Below are positions 1,624-21,556 of a DNA stretch of 64,000 nt, piece by piece; the first letter of the stretch is position 1, and each line of letters opens with the position of its first letter. The DNA lies in assembly GCA_023248155.1 (NCBI GenBank), contig JAHFFE010000003.1, forward strand, positions 108 to 64,107, read 5' to 3'. This DNA comes from Candidatus Omnitrophota bacterium (lineage in GTDB: Bacteria > Omnitrophota > Gorgyraeia > 1-14-0-20-64-10). The notes under the pieces were generated by a model. It worked only from the letters and a program-made list of their open reading frames with translations, did no database searches and had not been told where the DNA came from. A program made the position numbers and the translations under genes.

Positions 1624-1717
1624 AACGCTTTGTATTATACAGGGCAAAAGCGATACGAATCTTAATTTTATGCAATAAGTTCAACTCTCAGGTATACTTC
1701 CTTTGCAAGGTAAAACA

Positions 1718-5290: not shown

Positions 5291-5299
5291 GAGGCAACC

Positions 5300-5815: not shown

Positions 5816-6377
5816 TCAGATTAAATCCAAATTCCCGGATGCCGTGATTGCCGCGCATCAGTATCGCGGCGATGACACGGTCACGATCCGCCCCGAATCG
5901 ATCGTTCGCGTGGCGCAAACGCTGCGCGATGATCCGGCATTTCAGATGAATCTGCTGATGGATCTGACCGCTGTGGATTATTCGAAATTCGCCCAGGAGC
6001 CGCAGGGCAAGGGCGGCCATATCAACGCCGGCATCGCCTTGAAACAGCCGTCCGATATTCCCGATGCTAATCCCTGGCCGGGACCGGCAACGCAGGCCCG
6101 TTTCGAAGTGGTCTATCATTTTGTCTCTCTTCCGTTGAAGCACCGTCTGCGCGTCAAGGTTCCCGTTGAAGAATCCAAGCCGGAAATCGATTCGATCTCC
6201 GCGTTGTGGGGCGGGGCCAACTGGTTTGAGCGCGAAGTCTGGGACATGTTCGGCATCCGGTTCACCGGCCATCCGAACCTGAAACGAATTTTGATGTACG
6301 CACAATTTGAGGGACATCCGCTCCGCAAAGATTATCCTGTGACTCAGCGCCAGCCGCTGATCGGCCCGAACAATTAA
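5793..6377 (+). CDS. nuoC: NADH-quinone oxidoreductase subunit C
   Basis: 30-kDa-subunit motifs ([33 protein letters not shown]). GTG start overlapping the nuoB end. Confidence 0.85.
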   Translation: MNVPLLSDQIKSKFPDAVIAAHQYRGDDTVTIRPESIVRVAQTLRDDPAFQMNLLMDLTAVDYSKFAQEPQGKGGHINAGIALKQPSDIPDANPWPGPATQARFEVVYHFVSLPLKHRLRVKVPVEESKPEIDSISALWGGANWFEREVWDMFGIRFTGHPNLKRILMYAQFEGHPLRKDYPVTQRQPLIGPNN

Positions 6378-6378
6378 A

Positions 6379-7773
6379 GTGGAACAACCGCAAAAAACAG
6401 TACAGCAGCAATTGGAAACGGCCACCCGGTCGTACGATCCGAATACCGGACTTGAGACGCGCGATATGCTGCTCAACATCGGTCCGTCGCATCCGGCCAT
6501 GCACGGCATCATCCGCATCGTTGCCAAGCTTGACGGGGAAACGCTCAAGGATATCGATGTTGAAATCGGCTACCTGCACCGCGCCTTCGAAAAAATGTCC
6601 GAAACGGTCAGCTACAACGGCGTGATGCCGTATACCGACCGGCTCAACTATGTTTCTCCGCTGATCAACAACATGGGCTACTGCATGGCCATCGAGAAAC
6701 TGCTCGATCTGCCGGTGTCCGAGCGCGCGCATTATATCCGCGTGATCATGTCCGAGATTTCCCGCGTCACCGACCATTTAACCTGCGTCGGCGCCAGCGC
6801 CATGGAGTTGGGGGCCTTTACCGTCTTCCTTTATATGATCAAGGCGCGCGAATATCTCTGGGAATTAGTGGAAGTAGTCACCGGCGCTCGTTTAACAATT
6901 TCTTACTGCCGCGTCGGTGGTTTAAAGAGCGACCTGCCGGAAGGTTTCGCCGAAAAAACGCATGCCGCGTTTGCCGAGGTGCGCAAGGTTCTGGTTGAAG
7001 TCGATCAGCTGATCACGCGCAACCGGATTTTCTTCGACCGCATGAAGGGAACCGGCAAGATCTCCAAAGAAGACGCGCTTTCGTATGGAATGACCGGTCC
7101 GTTTCTGCGTTCGACCGGTGTCAATTATGATGTGCGCAAAGATTTCCCGTACGCGATCTACGATCAGGTGAAATTCGAGGTTCCGCTGGGAACTTCCGGC
7201 GACAACCTCGACCGCTACTATGTCCGCATGGAAGAGATGGAACAGTCGATGCGGATCGTCGAGCAGTGCCTCAAGCAGATTCCGGGCGGTCCGGTGGCGG
7301 TTGATCCGCAGACCGGTAAGCCGATGGAAGCGTCTGAAATGGTCGACCGCGCCAAGATGGGCCAGATCGACAAGATCACCGACAAGATTGCCATTACCGA
7401 TCCGACGCTCGAAGGTTCCGATTCACGCGTGCACGATAAAATTCTGGTTTCCGAGAAGCGCGTTTCGTTGCCGGCAAAAGAAGATACCTACGGCAACATC
7501 GAAGGATTGATGAACCACTTTAAACTGGTGATGTTCGGCCATGGCATCCGTCCGCCGAAGGGCGAAGTCTATTTCCCGGTCGAAGGGGCCAACGGCGAGC
7601 TTGGTTTTTATGTCGTCAGCGACGGAACCGATAAAGCGTACCGTGTGCGCGTCCGTCCGCCGTGCTTTACGATTATGTCCGGTCTGCATAAATTATTGGT
7701 GGGCGAGCAGATGGCTGATATGGTTCCCACATTTGGTTCCGTCAATATGATCGGCGGAGAGCTCGACCGCTAA
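6379..7773 (+). CDS. nuoD: NADH-quinone oxidoreductase subunit D
   Basis: 49-kDa subunit (NIGPSHPAMHGIIR ... ends IGGELDR). GTG start; TAATG overlap with the next gene. Confidence 0.9.
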   Translation: MEQPQKTVQQQLETATRSYDPNTGLETRDMLLNIGPSHPAMHGIIRIVAKLDGETLKDIDVEIGYLHRAFEKMSETVSYNGVMPYTDRLNYVSPLINNMGYCMAIEKLLDLPVSERAHYIRVIMSEISRVTDHLTCVGASAMELGAFTVFLYMIKAREYLWELVEVVTGARLTISYCRVGGLKSDLPEGFAEKTHAAFAEVRKVLVEVDQLITRNRIFFDRMKGTGKISKEDALSYGMTGPFLRSTGVNYDVRKDFPYAIYDQVKFEVPLGTSGDNLDRYYVRMEEMEQSMRIVEQCLKQIPGGPVAVDPQTGKPMEASEMVDRAKMGQIDKITDKIAITDPTLEGSDSRVHDKILVSEKRVSLPAKEDTYGNIEGLMNHFKLVMFGHGIRPPKGEVYFPVEGANGELGFYVVSDGTDKAYRVRVRPPCFTIMSGLHKLLVGEQMADMVPTFGSVNMIGGELDR

Positions 7774-9581
7774 TGCAGAACTTTGATTTTACGAAATTAG
7801 AGGCGAAGGCCGCTGAAATCCTGGGCCGCTACGAAGAGAAGCGGGCCGCCACATTGCCGCTGCTCTGGCTGGTTCAGGAAACATTCGGCCATATTCCGCC
7901 GGAAGGCGAGGCCTGGGTCGGACAGAAGGTCGACAAGAGCATCGCCCATGTGCGCGAGGTCGTTTCGTTCTACACCCTTTATCACACGCAGCCGATCGGC
8001 AAACAGCATATTCAGGTCTGTGTTTCCACGCCCTGCATGCTGCGCGGCGCCAAGAAAGTAATCGCCCAGCTCGAAGAAAAATTGGGCATCGGCGTCGGGC
8101 AGACCACGCGCGACGGCAAAATCACTCTTTCAACGGTTGAATGTCTCTGTGCCTGTGAATCGGCGCCCATGGCGCAGGTGAATGATGATTACACCGGTAT
8201 TCTTGATGCCGCTGCGATTGATTCATTGGTCAAGCAGGCAACGCAATCCCCCGAAAAGCCGGTTCAATTACCCGAGCCGACGGCCTATATTGCCACCGAC
8301 GGCCCCGTCATCTCCCAGCGGTTCAAGAATGTGAACGGAACCTGGTTTGATGCGTATGTCGCCGACGGCGGTTATCAGGGCGCCAAGAAAGCGCTCGGCA
8401 TGCAGCCCCAGCAGATCATCGATGAAGTGATCAAATCCAATTTGCGCGGTTTGGGTGGCGCCGGTTTCCCGACGGGTAAGAAATGGAGTTTTATCCCGAA
8501 GGACAATCCGAAACCGAAATATCTGGTGGTCAACGCCGACGAGGGCGAACCCGGAACTTTTAAAGACCGTTATATTCTTGAGCGCGATCCGCACGCGTTA
8601 ATCGAAGGAATGATTATCGCCGCCTTTGCGATCGGTTCGCACAAGGCCTACATCTATATTCGCGGCGAATATGTCCGCTCAATCGAGCGAACCAATAAAG
8701 CGGTTGCCGAAGCGTATGCCAAAGGCTGGCTCGGCAAGAATATTCAGGGCAGTGGGTTTGATCTCGACATTGTCGTGCACCGCGGCGCCGGCGCTTACAT
8801 CTGCGGCGAAGAAACCGCGCTCTTAAGTTCACTCGAAGGCAGTAAAGGTTTTCCAAAATTAAAGCCGCCGTTCCCGGCGATCTCCGGTTTATTTAAATCA
8901 CCGACGATCGTCAACAATGTGGAAACGCTGGCATCGGTCTCGCATATTCTGCGCAACGGCGCCGAGTGGTACGCCAAAATCGGTACCGCCAAGCAGGGCG
9001 GCACGCGGTTATTCAGCGTCTCGGGCCATGTGGTTCGCCCCGGTGTTTATGAAGCGCCGGTCAGCGTGACACTGCGCGACTTGATCTACAAATATGGGCA
9101 GGGAATTCCCGGCGGCAAGAAATTGAAGGCCGTCGTTCCGGGCGGTATCTCAGCCAAGATTTTACGCGCCGATGAAATTGATGTGGCGATGGACTTTGAT
9201 TCGCTCATGGCGGTTGGTACGATGGCCGGTTCCGGCGGTGTGATCGTAATGGATGAAACCACCTGTATGGTCGACGCGCTGAAAGCGGCGTCACACTTTT
9301 TCGCCGATGAGTCATGCGGGCAGTGCTCGCCGTGCCGCGAAGGATCGGGCTGGTTGTTTAAGATGGTCAGCCGCGTTTCCAGAGGCCAGGGCAAGACCGA
9401 CGATATTCCAAACATGCTCACCACGGCTGCAGCGATGGAAGGCAAGACCATCTGTGTGTTTGCCGACGCGGCTGCCTGGCCGGTGCAGAGCTACATCAAT
9501 AAATTCCGTTCCGAGTTTGATCATCATATCGCCACCGGCAAGTGCGATATCGCGCAAACAACAGCCAAGGTTTCTGTCTGA
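7773..9581 (+). CDS. nuoEF: fused NADH-quinone oxidoreductase subunits E and F
   Basis: 602 aa. The N-terminal ~170 aa are NuoE-like with the 2Fe-2S motif (CVSTPC ... CLCAC). The remainder is NuoF with the FMN site (GLGGAGFPTGKKW), an NADH site (GEPGTFKDR) and the 4Fe-4S motif (ESCGQCSPCREG). Confidence 0.85.
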   Translation: MQNFDFTKLEAKAAEILGRYEEKRAATLPLLWLVQETFGHIPPEGEAWVGQKVDKSIAHVREVVSFYTLYHTQPIGKQHIQVCVSTPCMLRGAKKVIAQLEEKLGIGVGQTTRDGKITLSTVECLCACESAPMAQVNDDYTGILDAAAIDSLVKQATQSPEKPVQLPEPTAYIATDGPVISQRFKNVNGTWFDAYVADGGYQGAKKALGMQPQQIIDEVIKSNLRGLGGAGFPTGKKWSFIPKDNPKPKYLVVNADEGEPGTFKDRYILERDPHALIEGMIIAAFAIGSHKAYIYIRGEYVRSIERTNKAVAEAYAKGWLGKNIQGSGFDLDIVVHRGAGAYICGEETALLSSLEGSKGFPKLKPPFPAISGLFKSPTIVNNVETLASVSHILRNGAEWYAKIGTAKQGGTRLFSVSGHVVRPGVYEAPVSVTLRDLIYKYGQGIPGGKKLKAVVPGGISAKILRADEIDVAMDFDSLMAVGTMAGSGGVIVMDETTCMVDALKAASHFFADESCGQCSPCREGSGWLFKMVSRVSRGQGKTDDIPNMLTTAAAMEGKTICVFADAAAWPVQSYINKFRSEFDHHIATGKCDIAQTTAKVSV

Positions 9582-11155
9582 TGCCTAAGATTACAATCGA
9601 CGGAAAAACAATTGAAGTTGCAGCCGGCACGACGGTAATCCAGGCGGCGGAGCAAGTAGGCGTTTTTATTCCGCGCTACTGCTACCATCCCGGTTTGTCG
9701 GTGGCGGGTAACTGCCGCATCTGTTTGGTCGATGTCGAGAAGGCCCCCAAGCTGCAGATTGCCTGCAACACGCCGGTCGCCGAGGGTATGGTCGTCAACA
9801 CCACCAGCAAGAAAGTCACGGATGGCCAGCAGAGCGTTCTGGAATTTTTATTGGCCAATCATCCGCTCGACTGCCCGGTCTGCGACCAGTCCGGCGAGTG
9901 CGACCTCCAAAACTTTTATATGCAGTACGGCCGGTACGATCCGCGTTTCGAAGAGCAGAAGAACAAGAAACCGAAGGCGGTTCCGATCGGGCCTACTGTT
10001 ATGCTCGATGCCGAGCGCTGTGTATTATGTTCGCGCTGTGTCCGCTTTACCGACGAAATTACCAAGACCGGTGAGTTCGGCATCTTCAACCGTGGTGAAA
10101 AAGCCGAGATCGGTTTGTATCCCGGTAAAACACTCGATAACGATTATTCCGGCAATGTGGTCGATATCTGCCCGGTGGGCGCTTTAACCGACCGCGATTT
10201 CCGCTTTAAGGCGCGTGTCTGGTACCTGTCGACGGCGCCGTCGGTCTGCAACGGCTGTTCGCAGGGTTGTAACATTGATGTGCATTATGTACTCGACCGC
10301 CCGCATCTGGCCGATGGCGCGCGCGTAATGCGCTTAAAACCGCGCTACAACGCCGATGTCAACCAGTGGTGGATCTGCGACGAGGGCCGTTATGGTTTTA
10401 AGTCGGCCGATCAGGACCGCATCGAGAAAATCTCCTTAAAGGGCGCTGTGGCTGCCTGGGATATCGCGCTTACGCAAATCGCCACGGCCGTCACCAAATT
10501 AAAAGCAGCCAACCAACTTTCCGCGATGGCGGTTATTCCGTCGGCACAGTTAACGATCGAAGACCTTTATGCCGTCAAGAAATTAACGGATCAGCTTCCG
10601 GGCGTTGTTTGTACGGCGCAGGTTCCGCCGCTGCCGGGCAAGTCAGACGATCTTTTGATGAAGGCCGATAAAAACCCGAACAGCGCCGGCGTTGCGTTGC
10701 TCGAACTTGATAAAACTCCGGCCAGTTCCATTATTGAGGCGGCAGTTTCCGGGCAGATCAAGATTCTCTGGGTGATCGGGCAGGACCTTGTGAAATTATT
10801 TGGCGAGGAGAAGGTGAAACAGCTGGCGCAGAAAGTGGAGCTGTTCATCTATCAGGGGCCGAATACCAACAAAACTTCTTCGTACGCGCATGTTGTTTTA
10901 CCGGCGTCGCATTATCTGGAAAAAGACGGCACCTTTATCAATGTTCAGAATCGTGTTCAGCGGATTGGTAAAATTCTTCCGGCACTGGGCGATTCCAAGG
11001 CCGACTGGCAGATTGTTGCCGCGCTGGCCGCCAAGCTGGGGTTAACCGCCGGCTGGAAATCACTGCCGGAGCTTTTTGTTGCTGCCGCTGCTGAGGTGAA
11101 GCCGCTCAATGGACTGACCTATGAAAAAATTGGTCAGCAGGGCTTCACGGTATGA
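9581..11155 (+). CDS. nuoG: NADH-quinone oxidoreductase subunit G (short form, ~524 aa)
   Basis: N-terminal 2Fe-2S/4Fe-4S motifs (CYHPGLSVAGNCRICLV, HPLDCPVCDQSGECDLQ, CVLCSRCVRF). Start taken at MPKITIDGK (ATG overlapping the upstream stop). The C-terminal molybdopterin-like domain is truncated compared with ~700-900-aa NuoG. Confidence 0.85.
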   Translation: MPKITIDGKTIEVAAGTTVIQAAEQVGVFIPRYCYHPGLSVAGNCRICLVDVEKAPKLQIACNTPVAEGMVVNTTSKKVTDGQQSVLEFLLANHPLDCPVCDQSGECDLQNFYMQYGRYDPRFEEQKNKKPKAVPIGPTVMLDAERCVLCSRCVRFTDEITKTGEFGIFNRGEKAEIGLYPGKTLDNDYSGNVVDICPVGALTDRDFRFKARVWYLSTAPSVCNGCSQGCNIDVHYVLDRPHLADGARVMRLKPRYNADVNQWWICDEGRYGFKSADQDRIEKISLKGAVAAWDIALTQIATAVTKLKAANQLSAMAVIPSAQLTIEDLYAVKKLTDQLPGVVCTAQVPPLPGKSDDLLMKADKNPNSAGVALLELDKTPASSIIEAAVSGQIKILWVIGQDLVKLFGEEKVKQLAQKVELFIYQGPNTNKTSSYAHVVLPASHYLEKDGTFINVQNRVQRIGKILPALGDSKADWQIVAALAAKLGLTAGWKSLPELFVAAAAEVKPLNGLTYEKIGQQGFTV

Positions 11156-12231
11156 TCTGGGATATCGTTATTAAACTGGTGATCGCAGGGGCCGTTTTCT
11201 TTTTCGTGTTGAACCTGGCCGGCGCGCATACCTGGCTCGAGCGCAAGCAGTCGGCCGTGATGCAGGACCGCATCGGCGCCAATCGCGCCACGCTGTTCGG
11301 CCAGCGGCTGCTCGGCATTCCGCACTCGATTGCCGACGCCGTCAAGATGTTCACCAAAGAAGATTTTATTCCGGCCAATGCCGATCCATTCCTGCATACG
11401 CTGGCTCCATTCCTATCGGTATTTTTTGCAATGGTGGCGTTTGCCGGCATTCCGTTTGGCGATCATCTCATGCTGGGCGGGCGGATGATTGAATTGCAGG
11501 TGGCCAAGGTCGATGTGGCACTGCTCTATATTTTCGCGATGCTCTCGCTGGGCGTGTACGGTGTGATTCTGGCCGGCTATGCTTCGCGCAGCAACTACGC
11601 ACTGCTGGGTGCCATGCGGGCGTCAGCGCAGATGATCTCGTACGAAATCGCGCTGGGCGCCGGGATTGCCGGCATTGTAATGATTTACGGCACGCTCGAT
11701 CTGCAGGAAATGGTTCGCGCGCAGGGTGGGTTGGCCTGGGGTTTTCTGCCGAAATGGGGCATCTTTTTACAGCCGGTGGCGTTCTTTATTTTCCTGACCG
11801 CCGCGCTCGCTGAAACCAAGCGTACGCCGTTTGATCTTCCGGAAGGTGAGTCTGAAATCATCGGTTACTTTGTGGAATACAGCGGCATGAAATTCGGCAT
11901 GTTCTTTTTAACCGACTTCGTGGAAACCATTTTGGTGGCCTGCCTGGCGACGACGCTGTTCTTCGGCGGGTGGCAGATCCCGGGTCTCTCGGTCGCCGGG
12001 TTTAATTTCTTCGGACATCTGATCGCGGTTAACCCGGTTATTTACGCATTATTGGGTGTCATGAGCTTTACGCTGAAGGTGCTGATCTTCTGCTGGCTCT
12101 TTATGGCGATCCGCTGGACATTACCCCGGTTCCGCTATGATCAGTTAATGCGATTGGGCTGGCAGTACCTGTTTCCGATCGCGATCGCGAATGTGGTAAT
12201 AACCGGCCTTATTCTGGCCCTGGTAAAATAA
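11152..12231 (+). CDS. nuoH: NADH-quinone oxidoreductase subunit H
   Basis: Polytopic membrane protein with NuoH motifs (ERKQSAVMQDRIGANRA, YEIALG, PFDLPEGESEIIGYFVEYSGMKF). Confidence 0.9.
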   Translation: MIWDIVIKLVIAGAVFFFVLNLAGAHTWLERKQSAVMQDRIGANRATLFGQRLLGIPHSIADAVKMFTKEDFIPANADPFLHTLAPFLSVFFAMVAFAGIPFGDHLMLGGRMIELQVAKVDVALLYIFAMLSLGVYGVILAGYASRSNYALLGAMRASAQMISYEIALGAGIAGIVMIYGTLDLQEMVRAQGGLAWGFLPKWGIFLQPVAFFIFLTAALAETKRTPFDLPEGESEIIGYFVEYSGMKFGMFFLTDFVETILVACLATTLFFGGWQIPGLSVAGFNFFGHLIAVNPVIYALLGVMSFTLKVLIFCWLFMAIRWTLPRFRYDQLMRLGWQYLFPIAIANVVITGLILALVK

Positions 12232-12878
12232 TGGCAATCCGTAAGCGCGAGCTGACATTCTGGGAAAAATTATATTTGCCGCAGATCTTTTCCGGTTTGA
12301 AGCTGACGATGAAACATTTCTTCGTTAACCTCTTTATTCACATGGCGCACCGGCTCGGTTTAATGAAGAACAGTTCGGCGGCCGTGACGATTCAGTACCC
12401 CGAAGAACGGCGCTGGCTGGCTCCGCGTTTGCGCACGCGCCATCGGTTGATGCTGCGCGAAGAGGGGACCCCTCGCTGCGTGGGCTGCATGATGTGTGAA
12501 ACGATCTGCCCGGCCAAGTGTATTACCATCGTAGCGGGTGAGCACCCGGACCCGAATGTCGAAAAATACCCGACGCGGTTCGATATCGACCTCGGCAAGT
12601 GCGTTTACTGCGGTTATTGTGTTGAGGCTTGCCCGGAAGATGCGATCCGGATGGATACCCAAATCCTGGACATCGCCGCTTACTCCCGAGACGCGATGAA
12701 GCTCGATATGCACGAACTGCTCAACCCAACATTGCGCAAGCCGCTTAAAGAATGCGAGCTTAAATTTCCGCACAAGTGCGCCATCCATGACGGTAAGATA
12801 ACCGGCAGCTGGGATGCCGTCTATGGCAAAGGCCCCAAGAAGTCCAACCAGTTCGAGTCTGAAACACCCTCGCACTAA
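12231..12878 (+). CDS. nuoI: NADH-quinone oxidoreductase subunit I (with ~60-aa C-terminal extension)
   Basis: Two 4Fe-4S ferredoxin motifs (CVGCMMCETICP, CVYCGYCVEACP). Confidence 0.88.
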   Translation: MAIRKRELTFWEKLYLPQIFSGLKLTMKHFFVNLFIHMAHRLGLMKNSSAAVTIQYPEERRWLAPRLRTRHRLMLREEGTPRCVGCMMCETICPAKCITIVAGEHPDPNVEKYPTRFDIDLGKCVYCGYCVEACPEDAIRMDTQILDIAAYSRDAMKLDMHELLNPTLRKPLKECELKFPHKCAIHDGKITGSWDAVYGKGPKKSNQFESETPSH

Positions 12879-12901
12879 TCCGTCTGGGGTATAATAACCC
12901 C

Positions 12902-13912
12902 ATGGATACTCAGTGGATATTGCCTGCGGTTATTGTGGGTGCTATTTTTCTGGCTGAGATTCTCCCGCCTTTGTTGGTAAAAACCCGTTTGTTGAAACTC
13001 CCCACTGAATTATCTAGTTACAAACTGTTTTTCAGAACAGTACGCCAATTTTCTATTCGATTTCTTATTGCAGCCGTTGTGCTGGTCATTATTTTTGTTC
13101 GCCCCCAGTTCCTCGCTTTTATTCCTGCTCAGTTTGGGCTTTTTGTTTTTTATGGAATTTTATCCTCGGTAATTATTACCGTTCTTGTGTATAGAACTGT
13201 GCCTGTATTGGGAACCCTTTGTCCTCAGTGCGGAAAAAAACTGAAAAAACATGATAACGAGCCCGATACGATTGAATCGATTCTAATCAGGAAGCCGTGC
13301 CCGCAATGCGGATTAAAATTCGCGAAACCAGTTGATTCCGAACGAATGGCAGAGGAAGGAGAAAGGTCATTCTTCGATTATCTTGCTCTTTCTTTCGGAA
13401 ATAACTCTAAGTGTTCTATCTGTGGACAGCCCGGTCGGGATAATTTTGAAGATGGCAGGGGAAAGGAAAAACGCCTTTGCAGGGATCATGTCGTCAGTGA
13501 GCTGGAGAAGGAATTTCTCGCGTTCGACAAGAAGATGGTGGTGGTTTATCCGGGGCTGGAAGATCGCAAGAAGGCTTTTTATGTTTATCAGTACTACACG
13601 ACCGCCGAGATTAAGAAATTTAATATGAAGGAGATCGTGGGCGATTTAACCGAAAGCGGATTGGCTGCCATTGGCGGAGAGTGTAAAAAGTGTTCAGGAA
13701 AGGCGAGTGTGGCTTATTTCGGCAAGGGAACTTTTCGCTGGGAAGACGACTATCCAAAGCTGGAAGAAATTGACCATGCTCCTGAAATTCTCTGCCGCAA
13801 ATGTACTTTTAAGCAGATCAGGGAATCACTGCGGAGTTTTCAGGGATATTTTAATGAACCGGTCACTTCGCCCCATAAGGATGAAGGGATCCAATTGCCT
13901 TGGACGCTTTGA
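12902..13912 (+). CDS. hypothetical membrane protein with multiple CxxC zinc-ribbon-like motifs
   Basis: 336 aa. ~4 N-terminal TM helices are followed by a soluble domain with CPQCG(x21)CPQCG, CSICG ... C, and CKKC ... CRKC. No family recognised. The DNA is AT-richer than the nuo genes. Confidence 0.5.
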   Translation: MDTQWILPAVIVGAIFLAEILPPLLVKTRLLKLPTELSSYKLFFRTVRQFSIRFLIAAVVLVIIFVRPQFLAFIPAQFGLFVFYGILSSVIITVLVYRTVPVLGTLCPQCGKKLKKHDNEPDTIESILIRKPCPQCGLKFAKPVDSERMAEEGERSFFDYLALSFGNNSKCSICGQPGRDNFEDGRGKEKRLCRDHVVSELEKEFLAFDKKMVVVYPGLEDRKKAFYVYQYYTTAEIKKFNMKEIVGDLTESGLAAIGGECKKCSGKASVAYFGKGTFRWEDDYPKLEEIDHAPEILCRKCTFKQIRESLRSFQGYFNEPVTSPHKDEGIQLPWTL

Positions 13913-13928
13913 CCAAAGGAGAGAATAA

Positions 13929-14234
13929 ATGAACGCTCAATCATTAAAAATACCGGTGATTGTCTCATGCGTTATGTTGTTGATCGCGATTATTGGCGAT
14001 GCGTCCTCCGGATACTATACGTTGTTGCGATTAGTGGTGTGCGGAACAGCGGGTCTTTCGGCCTGGCTTGCCAAAGAGCAGAAAAAGGATGTCTGGTTAT
14101 GGGGTTTGATTCTTATCGCGTTGGTCTTTAATCCGATTGTTCCTGTCCGGTTCGACAGGGACCTGTGGGGGATAATCAGTTTTTGCGCCGGGGCTGCCCT
14201 CTTTGTTTTCTATATGCAGAATAAGCCCCGCTAA
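13929..14234 (+). CDS. hypothetical small membrane protein (3 predicted TM helices)
   Basis: 101 aa, hydrophobic segments VIVSCVMLLIAIIGD, LLRLVVCGTAGLSAWLA, LWGLILIALVFNPIV, IISFCAGAALFVFY. Confidence 0.45.
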   Translation: MNAQSLKIPVIVSCVMLLIAIIGDASSGYYTLLRLVVCGTAGLSAWLAKEQKKDVWLWGLILIALVFNPIVPVRFDRDLWGIISFCAGAALFVFYMQNKPR

Positions 14235-14320
14235 ATTTGCCGCGAAGGCTATAAAAGGACGAGCCATGAATTTGCGCCGTACCGGTACCGGGTTCGGAGG
14301 GGACAGGTTAGATAGCTAAG

Positions 14321-14545
14321 ATGCGACTACAGGTGAAGGTAGTGCCCCGGGCTAAGAAGCCGGGCGTTGAACAGCTCGCTGACGGTACCTGGAAAGTTTC
14401 TGTATCTGCCCCGGCCGAAGATGGCCGGGCGAACGCCGCGGTTATTGAAGCGCTTGCCAAACATTTCGACACTCCAAAAAACTCCATCCGAATTATCCGC
14501 GGGGAAACCAGCCGCATCAAACTGCTCGAGATTGCCTCAACTTGA
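14321..14545 (+). CDS. DUF167 (YggU/UPF0235) family protein
   Basis: 74 aa (VKVVPRAKKPG ... VSVSAPAEDGRANAAVIEALAKHF ... IRIIRGETSRIKLLEI) matches the YggU pattern. Confidence 0.65.
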   Translation: MRLQVKVVPRAKKPGVEQLADGTWKVSVSAPAEDGRANAAVIEALAKHFDTPKNSIRIIRGETSRIKLLEIAST

Positions 14546-14697
14546 CATCGCAAAATGCGACCAGTCATGGTTCGATAGGCTCACCACGACCGGATAATTA
14601 AGATCTCCGATAAAATGATTTGGGAATGATGTCTATCCTTGATATTGCTGAATACACACAAATATTGTAATATAAGAATTTGGACGGTGGATTGACA

Positions 14698-14717
14698 ATA
14701 TAACTTAGGAGTTATAT
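14698..14717. promoter_or_regulatory. perfect 8-bp inverted repeat ATATAACT-TAGG-AGTTATAT; candidate antitoxin operator overlapping the promoter/RBS of the toxin gene
   Basis: Palindrome sits 5 nt upstream of the higB-like ATG, between TTGACA (14692-14697) and a TATACT -10-like hexamer (14715-14720). It overlaps an AGGAG. Confidence 0.35.
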
Positions 14718-14721
14718 ACTT

Positions 14722-15066
14722 ATGAGTGCGAGGGAAGTGGTTTATTATTTGGATGATAAGGGCCGGTGTCCGGTTCTTGAGGAGTTAGATCGACTGACTC
14801 CGAATGAGCGGGGTAAGATTCTCGCTTATATTTCGCTGCTCGAAGAGCAGGGTGAAGCGCTTCGCCGGCCGATTGCCGATTATGTAGGGGATAAGTTATA
14901 TGAACTTCGGCCAAAAGCGCATCGTGTGCTTTATTTCTTTTATGTTGAGAGGCAAGTGGTTATTCTGCATTTGTTTCGAAAGAAGACGGATAGGCTTCCT
15001 GAAAAGGAGCGGCAGGTTGCGTTGGAGCGAATGAAAGATATTATTCAGCGTGGAGGGATAAAATGA
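14722..15066 (+). CDS. type II toxin-antitoxin system RelE/ParE-superfamily toxin (HigB-like)
   Basis: 114 aa. The sequence VVYYLDDKGRCPVLEEL ... GDKLYELRPKAHRVLYFFYVERQVVILHLFRKKTDRLPEKE fits the phage-derived killer-protein family that pairs with XRE antitoxins. Confidence 0.75.
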   Translation: MSAREVVYYLDDKGRCPVLEELDRLTPNERGKILAYISLLEEQGEALRRPIADYVGDKLYELRPKAHRVLYFFYVERQVVILHLFRKKTDRLPEKERQVALERMKDIIQRGGIK

Positions 15067-15374
15067 AACGTGTTCAATTGATAGCGCATAAGGAAGTTCT
15101 CGGGAAATATCTTAAAGATGAGAAATTCCGCAAGGATTACGAACAGGAGCTTGAGAAGCTGCGCATCGTGCACGCGTTGGTTAGTCTTCGGGAACGCCGG
15201 GGATTAACGCAGGCAGCTCTCGCTCGACGAATGCATGTGACCCAGCCATTTATTGCCAAGCTGGAATCCGGCCAGATACGGAATTTTAATCTGGAAACTT
15301 TAGTGAAAGTAGCTGTTGCGCTGGATAGTGAATTGGAAGTGCGATTTAGACCGCATATCGCTCGTGCGGCATGA
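15063..15374 (+). CDS. HTH XRE-family antitoxin (HigA-like)
   Basis: 103 aa with an HTH (LRERRGLTQAALARRMHVTQPFIAKLESG). 4-nt overlap with the upstream toxin gene. Confidence 0.75.
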   Translation: MKRVQLIAHKEVLGKYLKDEKFRKDYEQELEKLRIVHALVSLRERRGLTQAALARRMHVTQPFIAKLESGQIRNFNLETLVKVAVALDSELEVRFRPHIARAA

Positions 15375-15381
15375 CAGGGTT

Positions 15382-16818
15382 TTAGAAGATGTGCTGGATG
15401 GAGCGGATGGAAATCGCCAGGAACGGATACTGCCAAATTCCCAGCACGAAGATTCCAATCAGGCAGGCAACGATCGACATCTTCATTGTGGTACCGATTT
15501 TGATCGGAGTAGCATCAACCGGTTCGTCGGCATAAAGCGTTTGGACGACCCGCAAGTAGTAGTAGAGTGAAATTACCACAGCCACCGCACCAATAATTGC
15601 CAGCGTTAAATAACCCTGTGACAAGGCACTTAAGACCAGTAGGAACTTTCCGAAGAATCCCGCCATCGGCGGAACACCTGCCAGCGATAATAGACCGATG
15701 AACATCGCCGCCGCCAAGAACGGTGACCGCTTTGAAAGCCCCGCGAACGATTTAATTTCATCGGAACCGGTTTGCAATGTAACCGCTGTAATTACGAGGA
15801 ACAACACCAGGTTTGTGAACAAATAGCCGAGCAGGTAATAGGAAACCGCTGCCGAGCCGATATCGACGCCGGCAGTAATACCCATCAATAAATAACCGGC
15901 ATGGCCGATTGATGAATAAGCCATGAATCGTTTGATATTGGTTTGCGGGATCGCGCAAAGATTGCCGTACAAAATGGTGGCTCCGGATGCGAATACCAGC
16001 ACGCTGTTCCAGGCCATCGAGAACGGCAGGAACAGTTCCTGCAAAATCCGCAGCGCCACCAAAAATGCCAGCGCCTTCGAGCCGACCGACAAGAATGCGG
16101 TGACCGGCGTGGGTGCGCCCTGGTAAACATCGGGCGCCCAAATTTGGAACGGTACCACTGCTGCTTTAAACAAAATGCCCGCCAGTACCAGCAAGATGCC
16201 GAACACCAGGCCGGCCGGTAAAGTCTGCGCGCGCAGAGACATCGCGTGGATCGTTTCAAAGTGCAGGGAACCGGTGGTGCCGTAAATAAAGGCGATGCCG
16301 TACAAGAACAGCGCCGAAGAAAGCGAGCCGAGCACGAGGTACTTCAGGCCGCTCTCGAGCGATTGCAGATTGGTATGCAGATAAGAGACCAGCACATAGA
16401 GCGTAATGGCGACCAGTTCGAGCGAGATGAATAGCATCAGGAAGTTGGCCGATGACGCGGCCAGGAACATACCGAGCACGGCGATTAAGAACAGCAGATA
16501 AAATTCGCCATGCGCGCGGTCAACCGCTTTTCCGAATTCGCGCGCCAGCACCAGCGCCACGATACCGGACACCGTAAAAATGCCCTTAAAAAATAGCGCC
16601 ATCGTATCGACGCGGAACATGCCGCTGAATAGTTCATGCGAGCCGCCTTCTTTGGCCAGCAGAAATAAAATGGGGAACAGCGGCAGCATGCCGGCGATGG
16701 CGATTAAGCCCATCAGCGGATGTTTCTCTTCGCCCCATTTTAGGTCCAGCGCCAATAGCAGGAAGATGATGGTGCTGAGCCATACCTCGGGTAATATCCA
16801 GAAGAGGGTGTGCATCAT
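15382..16818 (-). CDS. nuoN: NADH-quinone oxidoreductase subunit N
   Basis: 478-aa antiporter-like subunit (FLMLFISLELVAITLYVLVSY ...). Confidence 0.88.
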   Translation of the reverse strand: MMHTLFWILPEVWLSTIIFLLLALDLKWGEEKHPLMGLIAIAGMLPLFPILFLLAKEGGSHELFSGMFRVDTMALFFKGIFTVSGIVALVLAREFGKAVDRAHGEFYLLFLIAVLGMFLAASSANFLMLFISLELVAITLYVLVSYLHTNLQSLESGLKYLVLGSLSSALFLYGIAFIYGTTGSLHFETIHAMSLRAQTLPAGLVFGILLVLAGILFKAAVVPFQIWAPDVYQGAPTPVTAFLSVGSKALAFLVALRILQELFLPFSMAWNSVLVFASGATILYGNLCAIPQTNIKRFMAYSSIGHAGYLLMGITAGVDIGSAAVSYYLLGYLFTNLVLFLVITAVTLQTGSDEIKSFAGLSKRSPFLAAAMFIGLLSLAGVPPMAGFFGKFLLVLSALSQGYLTLAIIGAVAVVISLYYYLRVVQTLYADEPVDATPIKIGTTMKMSIVACLIGIFVLGIWQYPFLAISIRSIQHIF

Positions 16819-18293
16819 TTTAAGTGCGCCAGAATATTCGGTGTTGCCGTGGAAATAATTTCAAGCAGCGAGCGCGGCCAGATACCAACGATCATGAGTG
16901 CCGCCAGTAAAATGAGGTACGGAATTTTTTCAAAGTTAGTGGCGTCTTTTAACTCGGCCCATTTCGGATTGAGCGGGCCGAAGAAAGCGGTACGTACCGT
17001 CCGCAGCATATAAAACGCGGTGGTGACGATGCCGAAGATGGCAGCCAGCGCCGACCAGCGATAAACATTCCACGACGCGAAGAAGATCAACAGTTCGGAA
17101 ACGAAGTTGGCGAAGCCAGGCAAACCGCTGGATGCCATTGCTGCCATGATGAACAGTGTGGAAACAAACGGAATCTGCCGTGCCAGACCGCCCCATTCGG
17201 CGGTGATGCGGGTATGCGTTTGATCGTAAATATGGCCGATTGCCGCGAAGGCCAGTGCCGTCATGATGCCGTGCGCGAACATCAGCAGTACCGCGCCGTT
17301 TAATCCGACCGGGTTCATGCAGGCCAGGCCCAGCAATACATAACCCATATGGCTGGATGACGAATAACCGATTGTGAATTTAATATCTTTCTGCGCCATT
17401 GCCACGAAACCGCCGTATAAAATGTTCATGATCGCGATGATCGCCACCCAGGGCATCCAGAATTGCGCGCCGGCGGGCAGTAACTGCATGGCGATGCGCA
17501 AAATGGCGTAGGAGCCCAGTTTCATCAGCACGCCGGCATGCAGCATGCTTACAGCCGATGGCGCTGATGCGTGGCCGAGCGGCGACCAGGAATGCAGAGG
17601 CCACATTGGCGCGATCACGCCGAAACCGAACAGCAGGAACGGGAATACCCAGACCTGCAGTTGAGTCGGAAGCGGATTCTGCATCAAGTACCGCTCTAAA
17701 AAGATCAGGTCAAAACTTTGCGCGCCGCTGGCCAGATAAACGATTGAAAGACCGATGAGCGCCAACACCGCGCCGGCGGTCAGGTAAAGCGTCAGCTTCA
17801 TCGTGGCATATTCTTTGTCTTTCGATCCCCAGATGCCGATCAACGGGAACATCGGGATCACAGCCATTTCGTAGAACAGGTAGAAAAAGAACAGGTCGAG
17901 TGAAGCGAAGACGCCGGCCACGCCGCCGATCAAGAGCAGGTAGAAGATGTAATATTCTTTGACGCGCTTCTGCACGCGGTAGGAAACCAGTACGCCGGTA
18001 AACGAGCAGAGCGAGTGCAGAAGAACAAGCACGACGCTGATGCCGTCGAGGCCCACCTGATAATTAATGCCGAGCGTGGGAATCCAACTGATTTTTTCCA
18101 GACACTGATAGCCGCCGAGCACTTTATCGTAATGGTAAACGCAATGCAGGGCGATCAACAGCGGCACCGCCGTAAATGCGGTGGCGATCCAGCGAACCCA
18201 CTTGTCGCGCCCCTGCGGAACCATCATTAAAAGGATGGCGCCGATGATCGGCGATAAAACGAGTGCGCTTACTGGACCCATCGGAATACCCAT
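16815..18293 (-). CDS. nuoM: NADH-quinone oxidoreductase subunit M
   Basis: ~490-aa antiporter-like subunit (LFFFYLFYEMAVIPMFPLIGIWGS ...). Exact start uncertain (18293 or 18281). Confidence 0.88.
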   Translation of the reverse strand: MGIPMGPVSALVLSPIIGAILLMMVPQGRDKWVRWIATAFTAVPLLIALHCVYHYDKVLGGYQCLEKISWIPTLGINYQVGLDGISVVLVLLHSLCSFTGVLVSYRVQKRVKEYYIFYLLLIGGVAGVFASLDLFFFYLFYEMAVIPMFPLIGIWGSKDKEYATMKLTLYLTAGAVLALIGLSIVYLASGAQSFDLIFLERYLMQNPLPTQLQVWVFPFLLFGFGVIAPMWPLHSWSPLGHASAPSAVSMLHAGVLMKLGSYAILRIAMQLLPAGAQFWMPWVAIIAIMNILYGGFVAMAQKDIKFTIGYSSSSHMGYVLLGLACMNPVGLNGAVLLMFAHGIMTALAFAAIGHIYDQTHTRITAEWGGLARQIPFVSTLFIMAAMASSGLPGFANFVSELLIFFASWNVYRWSALAAIFGIVTTAFYMLRTVRTAFFGPLNPKWAELKDATNFEKIPYLILLAALMIVGIWPRSLLEIISTATPNILAHLK

Positions 18294-20161
18294 AAGAAGA
18301 TGGCGGCAAAACCAATCCAGACCATAAACGCGTAGCTCTGAACGCGCCCGGTTTGAATGCGGCGAAGGACCAGCCCGGTGACACCGGTTATTTTAGCCAT
18401 GCCGTTGGCGAACAGGCCCATGATTACATATTTCTCGAACAGGCCGAGGAATACCGCGCCTTGCTGTTGAACGTTCTGGTTTAAGTAGCGGTAAATCTCG
18501 TCGATCCAATATTTACGCGTGAGCGGTGTGGCCAGCCAGGTCAGTTTCTTTTGCGCGGCGGCGGAGGGCTGCATTCCTTTGCTGTAAATCATGAATGCCA
18601 GCGCGAGGCCGCCAATGGCTACAATCGACGAGATGATCGCCACCGTCATGTTGAACTCGACGTGGATGCCGCCATGCGTCGTGTGATGCAAGAATTCCGG
18701 GAAGCCCATGAAACCGCCGAAGATCGTCGGGATCGTTAACAGCATTAAGGGAATGGTCATCGCCCAGGGTGATTCGTGAATGCCGCCATGATGTCCGTGG
18801 GACTCCTCGTGATGATGAACGCGGCTTTCACCGAGAAACGCGATGCTGAACAAGCGGCCCATATAAAAGGCGGTGAGTCCGGCAGTCAGCGTGCCGACGA
18901 GATAAAGAATTTTATTCTGATGAAATGCGACAGCCAGAATTTCGTCCTTGCTCCAGAAACCACTGAGAGGAAAAATTCCGCAGAGTGCCAGTGTTGCCAG
19001 CAGGAATGTCCAGCCGGTGATCGGCATTTTCTTGAGCAGGCCGCCCATTTTCCAGATGTCGTTGCTGTGCACCGCGTGAATCGCCGAACCGGCTCCCAAG
19101 AATAACAGCGCTTTAAAGAAGGCGTGTGTGGTCAGGTGATAGATGCCGGCTGTGTAACCGCCGAGACCAAGCGCCATTACCATATAACCTAGCTGGCTCA
19201 ATGTAGAGAAGGCGAGAATTCGTTTAATGTCGTTCTCGACGAGCGCCATACTCGCGGCGAACAGGGCAGTAAACCCGCCGATCCAGGCAACCATGATCAG
19301 CGCCTGAGGCGCTTCCCAGAATAAGAAATAAGTCCGTGCAATTAAATAAACGCCGGCAGCCACCATCGTGGCGGCATGGATTAATGCGGAAACCGGAGTG
19401 GGGCCTTCCATCGCGTCGGGCAGCCAGACATGCAACGGGAACTGCGCCGATTTACCGAGCACGCCGCAGAAAACCAGCGCCGCGGCAACGGAGAGCGTTG
19501 CACTGGAAATTAATCCGCCATGAACAAATTCCGGAATCCGATGGGCCAGTTCAACAAAGTTGAGTGTTTTTTCGTGTCCGCCGAGGCCGGAGATATTCCA
19601 GAGCGTTAAGATACCGAGTAAAAATCCGAAGTCGGCGATGCGGTTTACCAAAAATGCTTTTTTGCCGGCGGCGGCTGCGCTGGGTTTCTCGTACCAGTAA
19701 CCAATCAACAGATAAGAACTGGCGCCGACGAGTTCCCAGAAAATAAAGAGGCTGACGAAATTATTGGAAAGGACAATGCCGAGCATTGAGAAAGCAAACA
19801 GTGACAGGCAGGCGAAATAACGGGTGTAGCTGCGATCTTCCTTCATATAACCGGTGGAATAGATAAAGACCATTAATCCGACGCCGGTCACCACGAGACT
19901 CATCAAGATGGCCGGTTTATCGAGCAGAAGACCAAACTCCAGCAATAGGCCGGGCAGGTTAATCCAGTTGAGTGAACTTTGAATAATCTGCGGATGTTCG
20001 CCGCCGGCATGCATCAGCGCTTGCAGCGCGCAGACGAAGCTGACTACCAAGCCGCCGATGGCTAATGCGGTGCTGGCCGGTTTTGATTTACGCGCGCCCA
20101 GAACAATGGCCACACAGGCCAGCAGCGGCGCAAACAGTAAAATCCAGGGAAGGGCTACCAC
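18269..20161 (-). CDS. nuoL: NADH-quinone oxidoreductase subunit L
   Basis: ~630-aa antiporter-like subunit (SLFIFWELVGASSYLLIGYWY ...). Present start is probably the GTG at 20161-20159, giving MVALPWILLF. The ORF-track TTG at 20182 lies inside the terminal inverted repeat of the inserted element. Confidence 0.85.
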   Translation of the reverse strand: MVALPWILLFAPLLACVAIVLGARKSKPASTALAIGGLVVSFVCALQALMHAGGEHPQIIQSSLNWINLPGLLLEFGLLLDKPAILMSLVVTGVGLMVFIYSTGYMKEDRSYTRYFACLSLFAFSMLGIVLSNNFVSLFIFWELVGASSYLLIGYWYEKPSAAAAGKKAFLVNRIADFGFLLGILTLWNISGLGGHEKTLNFVELAHRIPEFVHGGLISSATLSVAAALVFCGVLGKSAQFPLHVWLPDAMEGPTPVSALIHAATMVAAGVYLIARTYFLFWEAPQALIMVAWIGGFTALFAASMALVENDIKRILAFSTLSQLGYMVMALGLGGYTAGIYHLTTHAFFKALLFLGAGSAIHAVHSNDIWKMGGLLKKMPITGWTFLLATLALCGIFPLSGFWSKDEILAVAFHQNKILYLVGTLTAGLTAFYMGRLFSIAFLGESRVHHHEESHGHHGGIHESPWAMTIPLMLLTIPTIFGGFMGFPEFLHHTTHGGIHVEFNMTVAIISSIVAIGGLALAFMIYSKGMQPSAAAQKKLTWLATPLTRKYWIDEIYRYLNQNVQQQGAVFLGLFEKYVIMGLFANGMAKITGVTGLVLRRIQTGRVQSYAFMVWIGFAAIFLWVFRWVQ

Positions 20162-20457
20162 CCCGCACCTTTGCCCGCACAAAGACTATGTTCTATGCGA
20201 CCTTTCAACTGTCCGAGTGCTTTTCCATAATATTTAAGCCTATCTTCTCGCAACGAGGCGTCTTTCTCCGACTTGTAAGCTTCATAATAGACTAGTTGGA
20301 TAGGTAAACGATGCTTGGTGGAAGCAGACATTCCGTTCTTATGTTCGTTTATTCTCTTTTGAATATCTGCGGTTCGTCCAATATATAATTTCCCATCCGC
20401 CTCGCTTTTAAGGATGTATACATAGAACATTTGCGGGCAAAGGTGCGGGGCTACCAT
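20155..20457 (-). CDS. GIY-YIG nuclease-domain protein (YhbQ/UPF0213-like)
   Basis: Sequence FYVYILKSEADGKLYIGRTADIQKRINEHKNG ... Y fits the GIY-YIG motif. The ORF-track start at 20457 is the ancestral nuoL ATG; the element-internal start is likely ATG at 20430 (MFYVYIL). The C-terminus runs into the left TIR. Confidence 0.7.
   Translation of the reverse strand: MVAPHLCPQMFYVYILKSEADGKLYIGRTADIQKRINEHKNGMSASTKHRLPIQLVYYEAYKSEKDASLREDRLKYYGKALGQLKGRIEHSLCAGKGAGW
20161..20179. repeat. left terminal inverted repeat of the GIY-YIG mini-element
   Basis: 19/19 reverse-complement match to 20432-20450. Confidence 0.7.
20432..20450. repeat. right terminal inverted repeat of the GIY-YIG mini-element
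   Basis: 19/19 reverse-complement match to 20161-20179. Confidence 0.7.
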
Positions 20458-20762
20458 TTCAGCGCGCGGACCTCATCGGCGTTAATCTTGCCGGTTTTGC
20501 GCGAGAGCAGCAGCGCGATCGCCAGACCGACGGTGACTTCAGCGGCGGCGACGATCATCACAAAGAAAACCATGATCTGTCCGGCGAGATCCCCCTGAAT
20601 ATAAGCGAACGAAACGAACGCCAGGTTGGCGGCCGAAAGCATTAATTCCAGGCTGAGCAGAACCAGAATTAAATTGCGGCGCGTAACTACGCCGACCAGT
20701 CCGATTGTGAACAGGATGATGCTCAAGCCCAGTAGCTGTTGGATAGTGACGATTTCAGACAT
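20451..20762 (-). CDS. nuoK: NADH-quinone oxidoreductase subunit K
   Basis: 103 aa with 3 TM helices (LSLELMLSAANLAFVSF ...). The stop TAG is formed by the right CTACCA copy. Confidence 0.88.
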   Translation of the reverse strand: MSEIVTIQQLLGLSIILFTIGLVGVVTRRNLILVLLSLELMLSAANLAFVSFAYIQGDLAGQIMVFFVMIVAAAEVTVGLAIALLLSRKTGKINADEVRALKW

Positions 20763-21259
20763 CAGAGTTTCTTCTTTGCAAGAACGATGGCGCCGATGAC
20801 GCCGACCAATAACAATATGGAAGCTACTTCAAACGGGAGCGCGTAGATGGTAAATAATTGTTCGCCGACGGCGCGCGTGGTGCCGGTGACGCCGGTCTGG
20901 ATATCGGACAGTTTCTCCGACTGGAATGTATTGATGACGCGGCCGGCCTGCGAGATAAAAAAGAGACCGAACAGTGCCGCTCCGATTAACAGCGCCGGCT
21001 TGCGTGAGCGCAATAATGTTTCCGGCGTGATATCGAGCAGCATCACCACGAACAAGAAGAGGATTAATACCGCGCCGGCATAAACCAGAATTTGGATGAC
21101 CGCGACGAAATAAGCGTTGAGCGCGACGAACAGGGCGGAGAGGGCGAACAGCGTAACGACAAGGCTCAAGATCGCGTAGACAGGATGACGCGCCAGCAGC
21201 ACGCCCAACGCGCCAAAGACCGCGATACCCGCGACCGTATAGAAGAAAAGAGGATCCAT
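20762..21259 (-). CDS. nuoJ: NADH-quinone oxidoreductase subunit J
   Basis: NuoJ-like TM protein. Start taken at MDPLFFYTVAGIAVFGAL (21259) rather than the ORF-track start at 21334. Confidence 0.8.
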   Translation of the reverse strand: MDPLFFYTVAGIAVFGALGVLLARHPVYAILSLVVTLFALSALFVALNAYFVAVIQILVYAGAVLILFLFVVMLLDITPETLLRSRKPALLIGAALFGLFFISQAGRVINTFQSEKLSDIQTGVTGTTRAVGEQLFTIYALPFEVASILLLVGVIGAIVLAKKKL

Positions 21260-21556
21260 TAAGTTGAATTTGAATGAGTAGAAGCGTAAAGGTTGTATTG
21301 TATCAAATGAGCAGATTTTTTGGCAAATATTCATACAGATTGGGTATACTTCCTCTATATGGGGAGAAATATGCGCATTTGGGTGCGTTTTTTATTTGGC
21401 CGAATAAGAAGCCGATTTCAAAACCCTTATTTCCGCTGCAAGGGCAAGGGCTGGGTTGCGCCTTTGTTCTCGCTCCTTGATGTACTGCAAGAGTACACCA
21501 TCGTCGCTCGGCCTCGGCTCACTCCAGCCGTTGTCCTTTCGCGGGGAAACCGGGTC

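Follow-up and report, generated by a model that had tools for sequence, protein, structure and literature searches.

We analyzed a 64,000-nucleotide stretch of an Omnitrophota metagenome-assembled genome (MAG), hereafter called the window, in which the genes for complex I form two convergent half-operons, nuoA-I and nuoJ-N. Between the stops of nuoI and nuoN lie 2,503 bp (12879-15381), and this islet holds five open reading frames (ORFs), all on the + strand. They encode a 336-amino-acid (aa) membrane protein, a small membrane protein of family DUF6804, a DUF167/YggU protein and a toxin-antitoxin pair that is, by homology, of the HigBA type. The convergent halves, the 2.5-kb gap and its five genes had been described in an initial annotation of the sequence, whose coordinates and content were borne out by the ORF map and by Pfam. 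The features at the junction are the following, where GC3 stands for the GC content at third codon positions.

4937..12878, + strand: left flank, nuoA-B-C-D-(E/F fused)-G-H-I half-operon; Pfam matches to all subunits, order the same in at least 16 Omnitrophota relatives
11152-12231, + strand: nuoH, from the ORF map
12231-12878, + strand: nuoI, stop codon TAA
12879..12901, + strand: 23-bp spacer between nuoI and the 336-aa gene; its small hairpin (GGGGT-ataata-ACCCC) has no T-run and is thus no intrinsic terminator, and the terminator scan was negative
12902-13912, + strand: 336-aa membrane protein, starting 23 bp after the nuoI stop; GC3 0.445
13929-14234, + strand: 101-aa small membrane protein, DUF6804 (PF20619, E 5.8e-22, 78.1 bits versus a cutoff of 27)
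14321-14545, + strand: 74-aa DUF167/YggU protein (PF02594, E 2.6e-23, 82.4 bits versus a cutoff of 30.9)
14639..14720, + strand: putative AT-rich control region of the toxin-antitoxin pair, proposed from sequence only (promoter-like hexamers and a palindrome)
14722-15066, + strand: HigB-like toxin of the Gp49/RelE-ParE superfamily, 114 aa (PF05973, E 3.3e-22, 78.8 bits versus a cutoff of 23.9)
15063-15374, + strand: HigA-like XRE-HTH antitoxin, 103 aa (HTH_3, E 7.8e-13)
15382-16818, - strand: nuoN, stop codon TAA at 15382-15384
15382..21334, - strand: right flank, nuoJ-K-(GIY-YIG insert)-L-M-N half-operon, convergent with nuoA-I; Pfam, and synteny in relatives

The islet has a GC content of 0.463 versus 0.539 for the window, and only 0.8% of the 2.5-kb windows are lower, all of them located at 1300-4400. 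The lower GC content first noted for this DNA is therefore confirmed, since it falls in the lowest 1% of 2.5-kb windows. The contrast is one of codon choice and not of membrane-protein composition. GC3 is 0.445 in the 336-aa gene, 0.452 in higB and 0.462 in higA, approximately 3 standard deviations (SD) below the genes of the window, versus 0.64 to 0.70 for the nuo genes, including those that encode membrane subunits. The DUF6804 gene (0.588) and the DUF167 gene (0.573) are near-native in this respect. A composition unlike that of the host, as looked for in horizontally acquired islands, is seen for the 336-aa, higB and higA genes and not for the DUF6804 and DUF167 genes, which gives a mixed picture for the islet as a whole. 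Elsewhere in the window, the low-GC3 class comprises two genes only, a GIY-YIG ORF located between nuoK and nuoL (0.436) and a gene encoding a 1,055-aa WD40/beta-propeller protein (0.456).

The DUF6804 gene starts 16 bp after the stop codon of the 336-aa gene and is preceded by the ribosome-binding site AAGGAGAG. Residues 9 to 93 of its product cover positions 6 to 88 of the 91-position DUF6804 model. Homologues occur in plasmid records, where they are annotated as "DUF6804 family protein," and a literature search found nothing on this family. The DUF167 gene has its own 86-bp upstream spacer, and its product also matches TIGR00251 (E 3.8e-26, 91.1 bits versus a cutoff of 35).

The last two genes of the islet are, judged by homology and gene order, a HigBA-type module. 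Each product matched one chain of the same solved complex, the HigBA complex of Streptococcus pneumoniae (PDB 6af3). Residues 5 to 111 of the Gp49/RelE-ParE toxin aligned with HigB (6af3_A; E 1.7e-11), and the XRE-HTH antitoxin matched HigA (6af3_B; E 2.4e-5) as well as HigA2 (7ewc; E 2.7e-4), in good agreement with the toxin-first RelE/ParE-XRE pair of the initial annotation. Furthermore, the toxin gene comes first and overlaps the antitoxin gene by 4 bp (ATGA), and, like HigBA modules, the pair has a palindrome in its upstream region. The similarity to 6af3 is nevertheless modest. The window pair also differs from HigBA modules in its position, with the higA stop located 7 bp from the convergent nuoN stop, so that antisense read-through from nuoJ-N is possible.

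The spacer in front of the toxin gene is 176 bp long and AT-rich. Promoter-like hexamers are found in it at 14639-14666 (TTGATA/AATATT) and at 14692-14720 (TTGACA-17-TATACT), together with a perfect 8+8 palindrome (ATATAACT-tagg-AGTTATAT, 14698-14717) that overlaps an AGGAG ribosome-binding site and is a candidate HigA operator. The module would be self-contained, with its own AT-rich promoter region and this putative operator. By homology to characterized HigBA modules only, HigB would be expected to cut mRNA bound to the ribosome, with HigA neutralizing HigB and repressing the promoter.

We also looked for signatures of mobility. Pfam revealed no integrase or transposase gene in the islet, the 64-kb window contains no tRNA, and Rfam gave no match within 12000-16000. 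Neither the islet and its individual modules nor the homologues of the 336-aa protein elsewhere were flanked by terminal inverted repeats or target duplications beyond shuffled expectation, and the GIY-YIG element between nuoK and nuoL, used as a positive control, stood out in the same repeat test. A 13-nucleotide (nt) inverted repeat (12867-12879 and 14722-14734) was considered as a boundary and rejected, as it is at chance level by our own estimate. Additionally, no terminator-like site separating nuoI from the 336-aa and DUF6804 genes was found in the terminator scan. The same islet, including the 336-aa protein, is present in identical form on two ENA metagenome contigs from two samples.

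The nuoI/nuoN junction in Omnitrophota

The canonical nuoA-N operon, of the E. coli and Thermus type, has 14 genes. Like in this operon, every core subunit is present in the window and the gene order inside each half is canonical. Unlike in this operon, the cluster breaks behind nuoI into two units that converge, a single fused gene stands for nuoE and nuoF, and foreign genes are found after nuoI and, in one case, between nuoK and nuoL. Because of the nuoE/nuoF fusion, the 14 complex-I subunits are carried by 13 ORFs. The initial annotation was hence right in that the genes are split in two but not in counting 14 genes. A second correction concerns the 100-aa GIY-YIG ORF, which separates nuoK from nuoL.

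We scanned the GTDB species genomes for NuoI, which gave 80 loci, and mapped all window proteins on these loci by tblastn. The best NuoI matches were 63 to 76% identical and came from Omnitrophota MAGs or from MAGs automatically labelled "uncultured Planctomycetia." After leaving out 19 of the 80 loci, which were too short for judging the layout, 61 informative loci were available. The convergent layout was found in 16 of them, all in Omnitrophota-type MAGs, and a colinear order with nuoI followed by nuoJ was found in 10, from MAGs with differing labels (e.g., Nitrospirota or Rokubacteria/Methylomirabilota). The other 35 had no nuoJ-N within the available DNA downstream of nuoI. At many Acidobacteriota loci, nuoJ-N is also missing after nuoI. 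Judged from this distribution of gene orders, the convergent split is old and ancestral to the Omnitrophota clade. Our literature search found nothing on the layout of nuo genes in Omnitrophota.

The nuoI/nuoJ boundary divides the hydrogenase-like module of complex I from the Mrp-antiporter-like module, and the breakpoint between the half-operons of the Omnitrophota clade (16 genomes) coincides with it.

The gap between nuoI and nuoN varies strongly. In L010, a locus from one of the closest relatives, there is no insert at all and the stop codons of nuoI and nuoN overlap each other by 4 bp, and in other relatives the gap measures 0.8 to 9.7 kb (maximum in L052). The gap contents of the relatives are mutually unrelated and include a HAD phosphatase, cpYpsA with SRPBCC, a dienelactone hydrolase (DLH), LpxD, a PilT-type ATPase, TPR proteins and MNT/HepT. 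This last pair, an MNT (Polbeta nucleotidyltransferase) and HepT toxin-antitoxin module, is alone in the junction of the close relative L011 (1540-2435 of that locus), and the nuoI/nuoN junction seems to draw toxin-antitoxin modules repeatedly. None of the five islet genes was found in the gap of the 16 convergent relatives, by tblastn or, for the 336-aa protein, with a family hidden Markov model (HMM). The 336-aa protein was likewise not found by tblastn or with the family HMM at any of the 80 NuoI loci of relatives.

Since the layout is clade-wide and the halves of L010 overlap by 4 bp without an insert, the islet did not cause the split or inversion. The initial suggestion that the islet was placed where the operon had been split or inverted is thus not supported by the synteny comparison. 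Similarly, the toxin-antitoxin module had been suggested to stabilize the other genes as cargo, but nothing shows such a stabilization, and a different pair is alone in the L011 junction.

We propose, with a probability of about 70%, that the 2.5 kb represent an accessory islet of mosaic make-up, specific to this lineage, at a convergent complex-I junction that is itself conserved. The islet would have accumulated at the permissive tail-to-tail junction of two half-operons that would have been separate since the ancestor of the Omnitrophota clade. Each lineage holds different genes at this place, since an insertion between two 3' ends breaks no promoter and no gene. Here, the junction would consist of three units, namely, the 336-aa and DUF6804 genes, the stand-alone DUF167 gene and the HigBA-type module. 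The 336-aa and DUF6804 genes would most likely be expressed by read-through as the 3' tail of the nuoA-I transcript, which is what we infer most simply from the spacers of 23 and 16 bp, the nuoI strand and the lack of a detected terminator.

By their foreign-like codon usage, the 336-aa gene and higBA were probably acquired, and the DUF6804 and DUF167 genes look native by the same measure. Because codon usage is mixed, the islet would have been assembled stepwise, in more than one event, and not as one mobile element. From the horizontally acquired cargo of the initial annotation, we thus retain accessory, lineage-specific DNA with three genes of atypical GC3. We do not retain one uniform mobile island, given the near-native DUF6804 and DUF167 genes and the lack of mobility hallmarks.

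In this, the locus resembles the flexible genomic islets known at convergent junctions: the flanks are conserved in at least 16 genomes, what lies between them is hypervariable, with toxin-antitoxin modules among it, and part of the islet content is compositionally atypical. However, no integrase, tRNA or repeat boundaries are present here, and the flanks are the two halves of one enzyme's gene set. The compositional anomaly inside a core respiratory cluster would then be explained by ordinary genome flux at a permissive junction and not by a new system. Accessory and selfish genes have landed repeatedly at the nuoI/nuoN junction, which would therefore help as a strain-level marker and in the annotation of these uncultured genomes. 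The islet is mostly ordinary and known in kind, with the exception of one unclassified zinc-binding protein. What is new is that nuo is split at nuoI/nuoJ throughout the clade, together with an unclassified, confidently folded two-metal domain family.

The 336-aa protein and its two-metal domain family

The 336-aa protein has three to four N-terminal transmembrane helices (approximately residues 3 to 108), five CxxC motifs and one CxxH motif, in agreement with the roughly four helices and multiple CxxC motifs first noted. It contains a zinc ribbon (CPQCG...CPQCG; C107/110/133/136) and a C-terminal domain of approximately 165 aa with a CCCH site (C171, C174, C193 and H196) and a CCCC site (C261, C264, C298 and C301). 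Neither the protein nor its C-terminal domain matched any Pfam, NCBIfam or PADLOC model above threshold, and a PDB sequence search with the family domain gave no match.

Close relatives of this protein are rare, with four in 5.8 billion proteins. An exhaustive profile search yielded 149 cluster representatives at E <= 1e-3, 92 of which were at E <= 1e-10, and a word-indexed profile search with a 49-sequence alignment gave at least four proteins among the matches listed. No relative was found when the GTDB species genomes were scanned with the family alignment, the corresponding metagenome scan added two loci, and tblastn of the 336-aa protein against plasmid and phage collections gave no match. 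The relatives have only the C-terminal 165 or so residues in common. The CCCH + CCC[C/H] pattern is kept in approximately 100 of 152 sequences, and most of the others miss columns and are apparently fragments. Furthermore, 57% of the members lack a transmembrane segment, and the remainder have 1 to 5. The architecture of the window protein, with membrane helices and an extra ribbon, recurs in P0002, P0005 and P0006, and P0002 is its nearest full-length homologue (45% identity).

AlphaFold2 predicted the C-terminal domain inside the full-length protein with a pLDDT (the per-residue model confidence) of 95 to 98, and a stand-alone family member with a pLDDT of 94.1 and a pTM (the confidence in the overall fold) of 0.90. 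In these models, each of the two metal sites combines a CxxC knuckle with ligands at a helix N terminus, in a treble-clef-like manner. Foldseek searches with the domain against PDB and BFVD returned nothing better than E 0.26 to 0.93, with TM scores of approximately 0.2. The 336-aa protein is thus similar to zinc-ribbon and treble-clef proteins (e.g., the HVO_0758 mu-protein, a weak match) in its CPxCG knuckle pairs and in the pairing of CxxC with CxxC or CxxH at a helix start in the domain model, but it differs from them in having an approximately 165-aa two-site domain without a Pfam, NCBIfam, PDB or Foldseek match, the best match in this comparison having an E of 0.8 and a TM score of 0.2. 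A match of one family member to FpoO (E 0.004) and matches of two members to Vfa1 were judged to be generic zinc-finger similarity. Most likely, the 336-aa protein is an adaptor that is tethered to the membrane, faces the cytoplasm and binds three metal ions. We consider the unannotated two-metal domain family, which is modelled with confidence and matches no solved structure, worth a follow-up.

Among the approximately 150 family representatives, eight genomic contexts were informative and were examined.

Window locus: after nuoI
L003/4/5: after nuoA-B-C-D plus a nuoI-like Fe-S gene
L007, 586-1305: between rpmB and SUI1
L009: after an SPFH gene
L090, 10001-11155: after a lolCD-like ABC pair, with a start/stop overlap with the lolD-like ATPase gene
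L093, 843-1541: after rplB
L094: among RTX/cadherin genes
L097: before tmk

A nuoI-type gene thus adjoins the family member in two of the eight contexts, which is more than chance would give. The L003/4/5 cluster is genuinely of the complex-I type, as its NuoD matches Nqo4 with E 1e-103. No DUF6804 gene was found near the other informative loci of the family, and no partner is conserved across the contexts. The idea that the 336-aa and 101-aa proteins could form a membrane pair consequently finds no support.

Two side observations concern these loci. The first is that L003 (8637-9719), as well as L004 and L005, encodes a NuoI-like protein of 360 aa that carries a PF04060 "FeS" domain in addition at its C terminus. 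Its gene directly follows nuoA-B-C-D, with neither nuoH nor nuoE-G, and is followed by the gene for a 306-aa homologue of the 336-aa protein, an unusual compact Q-module cluster in a groundwater organism. The second is that family members tend to directly follow highly conserved housekeeping genes (rplB in L093, the lolD-like gene in L090 and rpmB in L007). Inverted repeats or target duplications were not detected around these three members.

Alternative origins and roles of the islet genes

Several points weigh against a stepwise accumulation of accessory genes. Whether genes were gained in this lineage or lost in the others, and when, is judged from parsimony and codon usage. Both transcription together with nuoA-I and an active toxin-antitoxin pair are inferences, and our promoter and terminator scans are consensus-based, which makes them weak evidence that may not fit Omnitrophota. 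In addition, the gene for P0002 also comes right behind a nuoA-B-C-D-nuoI-like cluster, in another organism, which is unexpected for neutral cargo.

We consider it unlikely that the whole 2.5 kb is a single horizontally acquired island, in which the toxin-antitoxin module holds the 336-aa, DUF6804 and DUF167 genes as cargo. The low GC content across the region, the failure to find the genes in relatives and the module at one end would all be in agreement with such an island. However, its composition is uneven, with a GC3 of 0.57 to 0.59 in the DUF6804 and DUF167 genes versus 0.44 to 0.46 in the others, and we found neither an integrase or a tRNA nor att-like or terminal inverted repeats. Moreover, the toxin-antitoxin pair of L011 occupies the same junction alone, and the five genes do not move as a group, as DUF6804, DUF167 and higBA are missing from all other loci of the 336-aa family. 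The five-gene block was seen nowhere else, including in the plasmid and phage collections searched with the 336-aa protein.

The 336-aa protein, perhaps together with the DUF6804 protein, could instead serve complex I as an accessory or assembly factor specific to this lineage, expressed with nuoA-I and acting at the membrane beside NuoH/NuoI. This, too, appears improbable to us. Its gene does follow nuoI in the same direction at a distance of 23 bp, without a terminator detected in between, and its best full-length homologue also comes directly after a nuoA-B-C-D-nuoI-like cluster, a frequency (2/8 contexts) far above that of random positions. Furthermore, by its predicted topology, the metal-binding domain would face the cytoplasm, where the peripheral arm is located. 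On the other hand, the gene was not found in any of the 16 relatives with the same nuo layout, its codon usage is foreign-like, the six other contexts are unrelated (rpmB/SUI1, SPFH, lolCD-like, rplB, RTX and tmk), and over half of the family are soluble stand-alone domains. Similarly, Foldseek detected no fold similarity of the 336-aa protein to any complex-I subunit, the matches to complex-I chains (E >= 1.8) being noise. We thus found no conserved co-occurrence of the family with nuo genes (0/80 NuoI loci of relatives and 2/8 family contexts).

A more far-reaching version would have the 336-aa protein found an unrecognized two-metal family whose membrane-anchored ribbon subfamily is a facultative complex-I factor. 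This factor would be recruited to the 3' end of nuoA-I (the Q-module) and would dock on the cytoplasmic face near NuoH/NuoI. We give this version little credence; if it were true, the recurrence of the family after nuoI-type genes in two distant lineages would reflect function and not chance.

Finally, it is very unlikely that the islet genes were present at the junction ancestrally, disappeared from the sampled relatives and owe their low GC to weak expression or relaxed selection rather than to acquisition: the near-native GC3 of the DUF167 and DUF6804 genes and the distance to these relatives (only 63 to 76% identity in NuoI, which leaves room for many changes) would fit, but many independent losses would be needed over 16 genomes with unrelated gap genes and a minimum of a 4-bp overlap, and the GC3 of the 336-aa gene and higBA, approximately 3 SD low, matches that of the clearly inserted GIY-YIG ORF.

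A GIY-YIG element and other features of the half-operons

The right half-operon is interrupted by a second insert, an element of approximately 290 bp (20152-20456) that encodes only a GIY-YIG nuclease and is located exactly at the overlapping nuoK-stop/nuoL-start junction. The element has 31-nt terminal inverted repeats (20161-20191 and 20420-20450), whose outer 19 nt (CCCCGCACCTTTGCCCGCA) are perfect, and is flanked by a 9-bp direct repeat (GGGCTACCA) that corresponds to the duplicated nuoK-stop/nuoL-start overlap. The nuoK/nuoL junction is uninterrupted in L010 and L011, which thus represent empty sites. Homologues of the nuclease are proteins of approximately 85 aa (107 at E <= 1e-8), and the few labelled ones come from MAGs of the candidate phyla radiation (CPR)/Patescibacteria, Omnitrophica and KSB1. 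The three other homologue loci that we examined are all bounded by inverted repeats. They are listed here after the window ORF.

20155-20457, - strand: GIY-YIG ORF of the window, 100 aa (PF01541), between nuoK and nuoL
L098, 4998-5432 (L098/L099): GIY-YIG homologue between atpG and atpD
L100, 4976-5274: GIY-YIG homologue between pstA and pstB
L027, 241-541: GIY-YIG homologue adjoining an oxidoreductase-like ORF, whose identity was judged from sequence

The L098 element has the same repeat sequence as the window element, an interior that is approximately 60% identical, and homology that ends exactly at the repeat ends. Beside it lies an ORF-less copy resembling a miniature inverted-repeat transposable element (MITE). 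In both the window and L098, the element ORF takes its start and stop codons from the duplicated junction, from which the host gene downstream also receives a GTG start, and translational coupling is thus kept. A search of viral contigs with the 19-mer repeat gave one single-arm match, approximately the chance expectation by our own estimate, and no relatives of the GIY-YIG protein were found in viruses. We found no description of bacterial GIY-YIG elements bounded by inverted repeats in the searchable literature. The element may belong to an undescribed class of miniature mobile elements that target coupled gene junctions in essential operons. A miniature GIY-YIG element with inverted repeats that inserts at translationally coupled junctions in such operons appears to us worth a follow-up.

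Two further features of the nuoA-I half-operon were observed. The nuoE/nuoF fusion is a single 602-aa ORF (7773-9581) with a 2Fe-2S thioredoxin-like domain, a 51-kDa FMN domain and a 4Fe-4S domain, and tblastn with this protein gave one continuous match in many Omnitrophota relatives and split matches in others. Directly upstream of nuoA, the gene for the 1,055-aa WD40/beta-propeller protein (1703-4870) lies in a region with a GC content of 0.43 to 0.49 (over 1500-4500). It is the sole other large low-GC3 gene in the window, and by its low GC3 a second foreign-looking gene thus abuts the other end of the nuoA-I half-operon.

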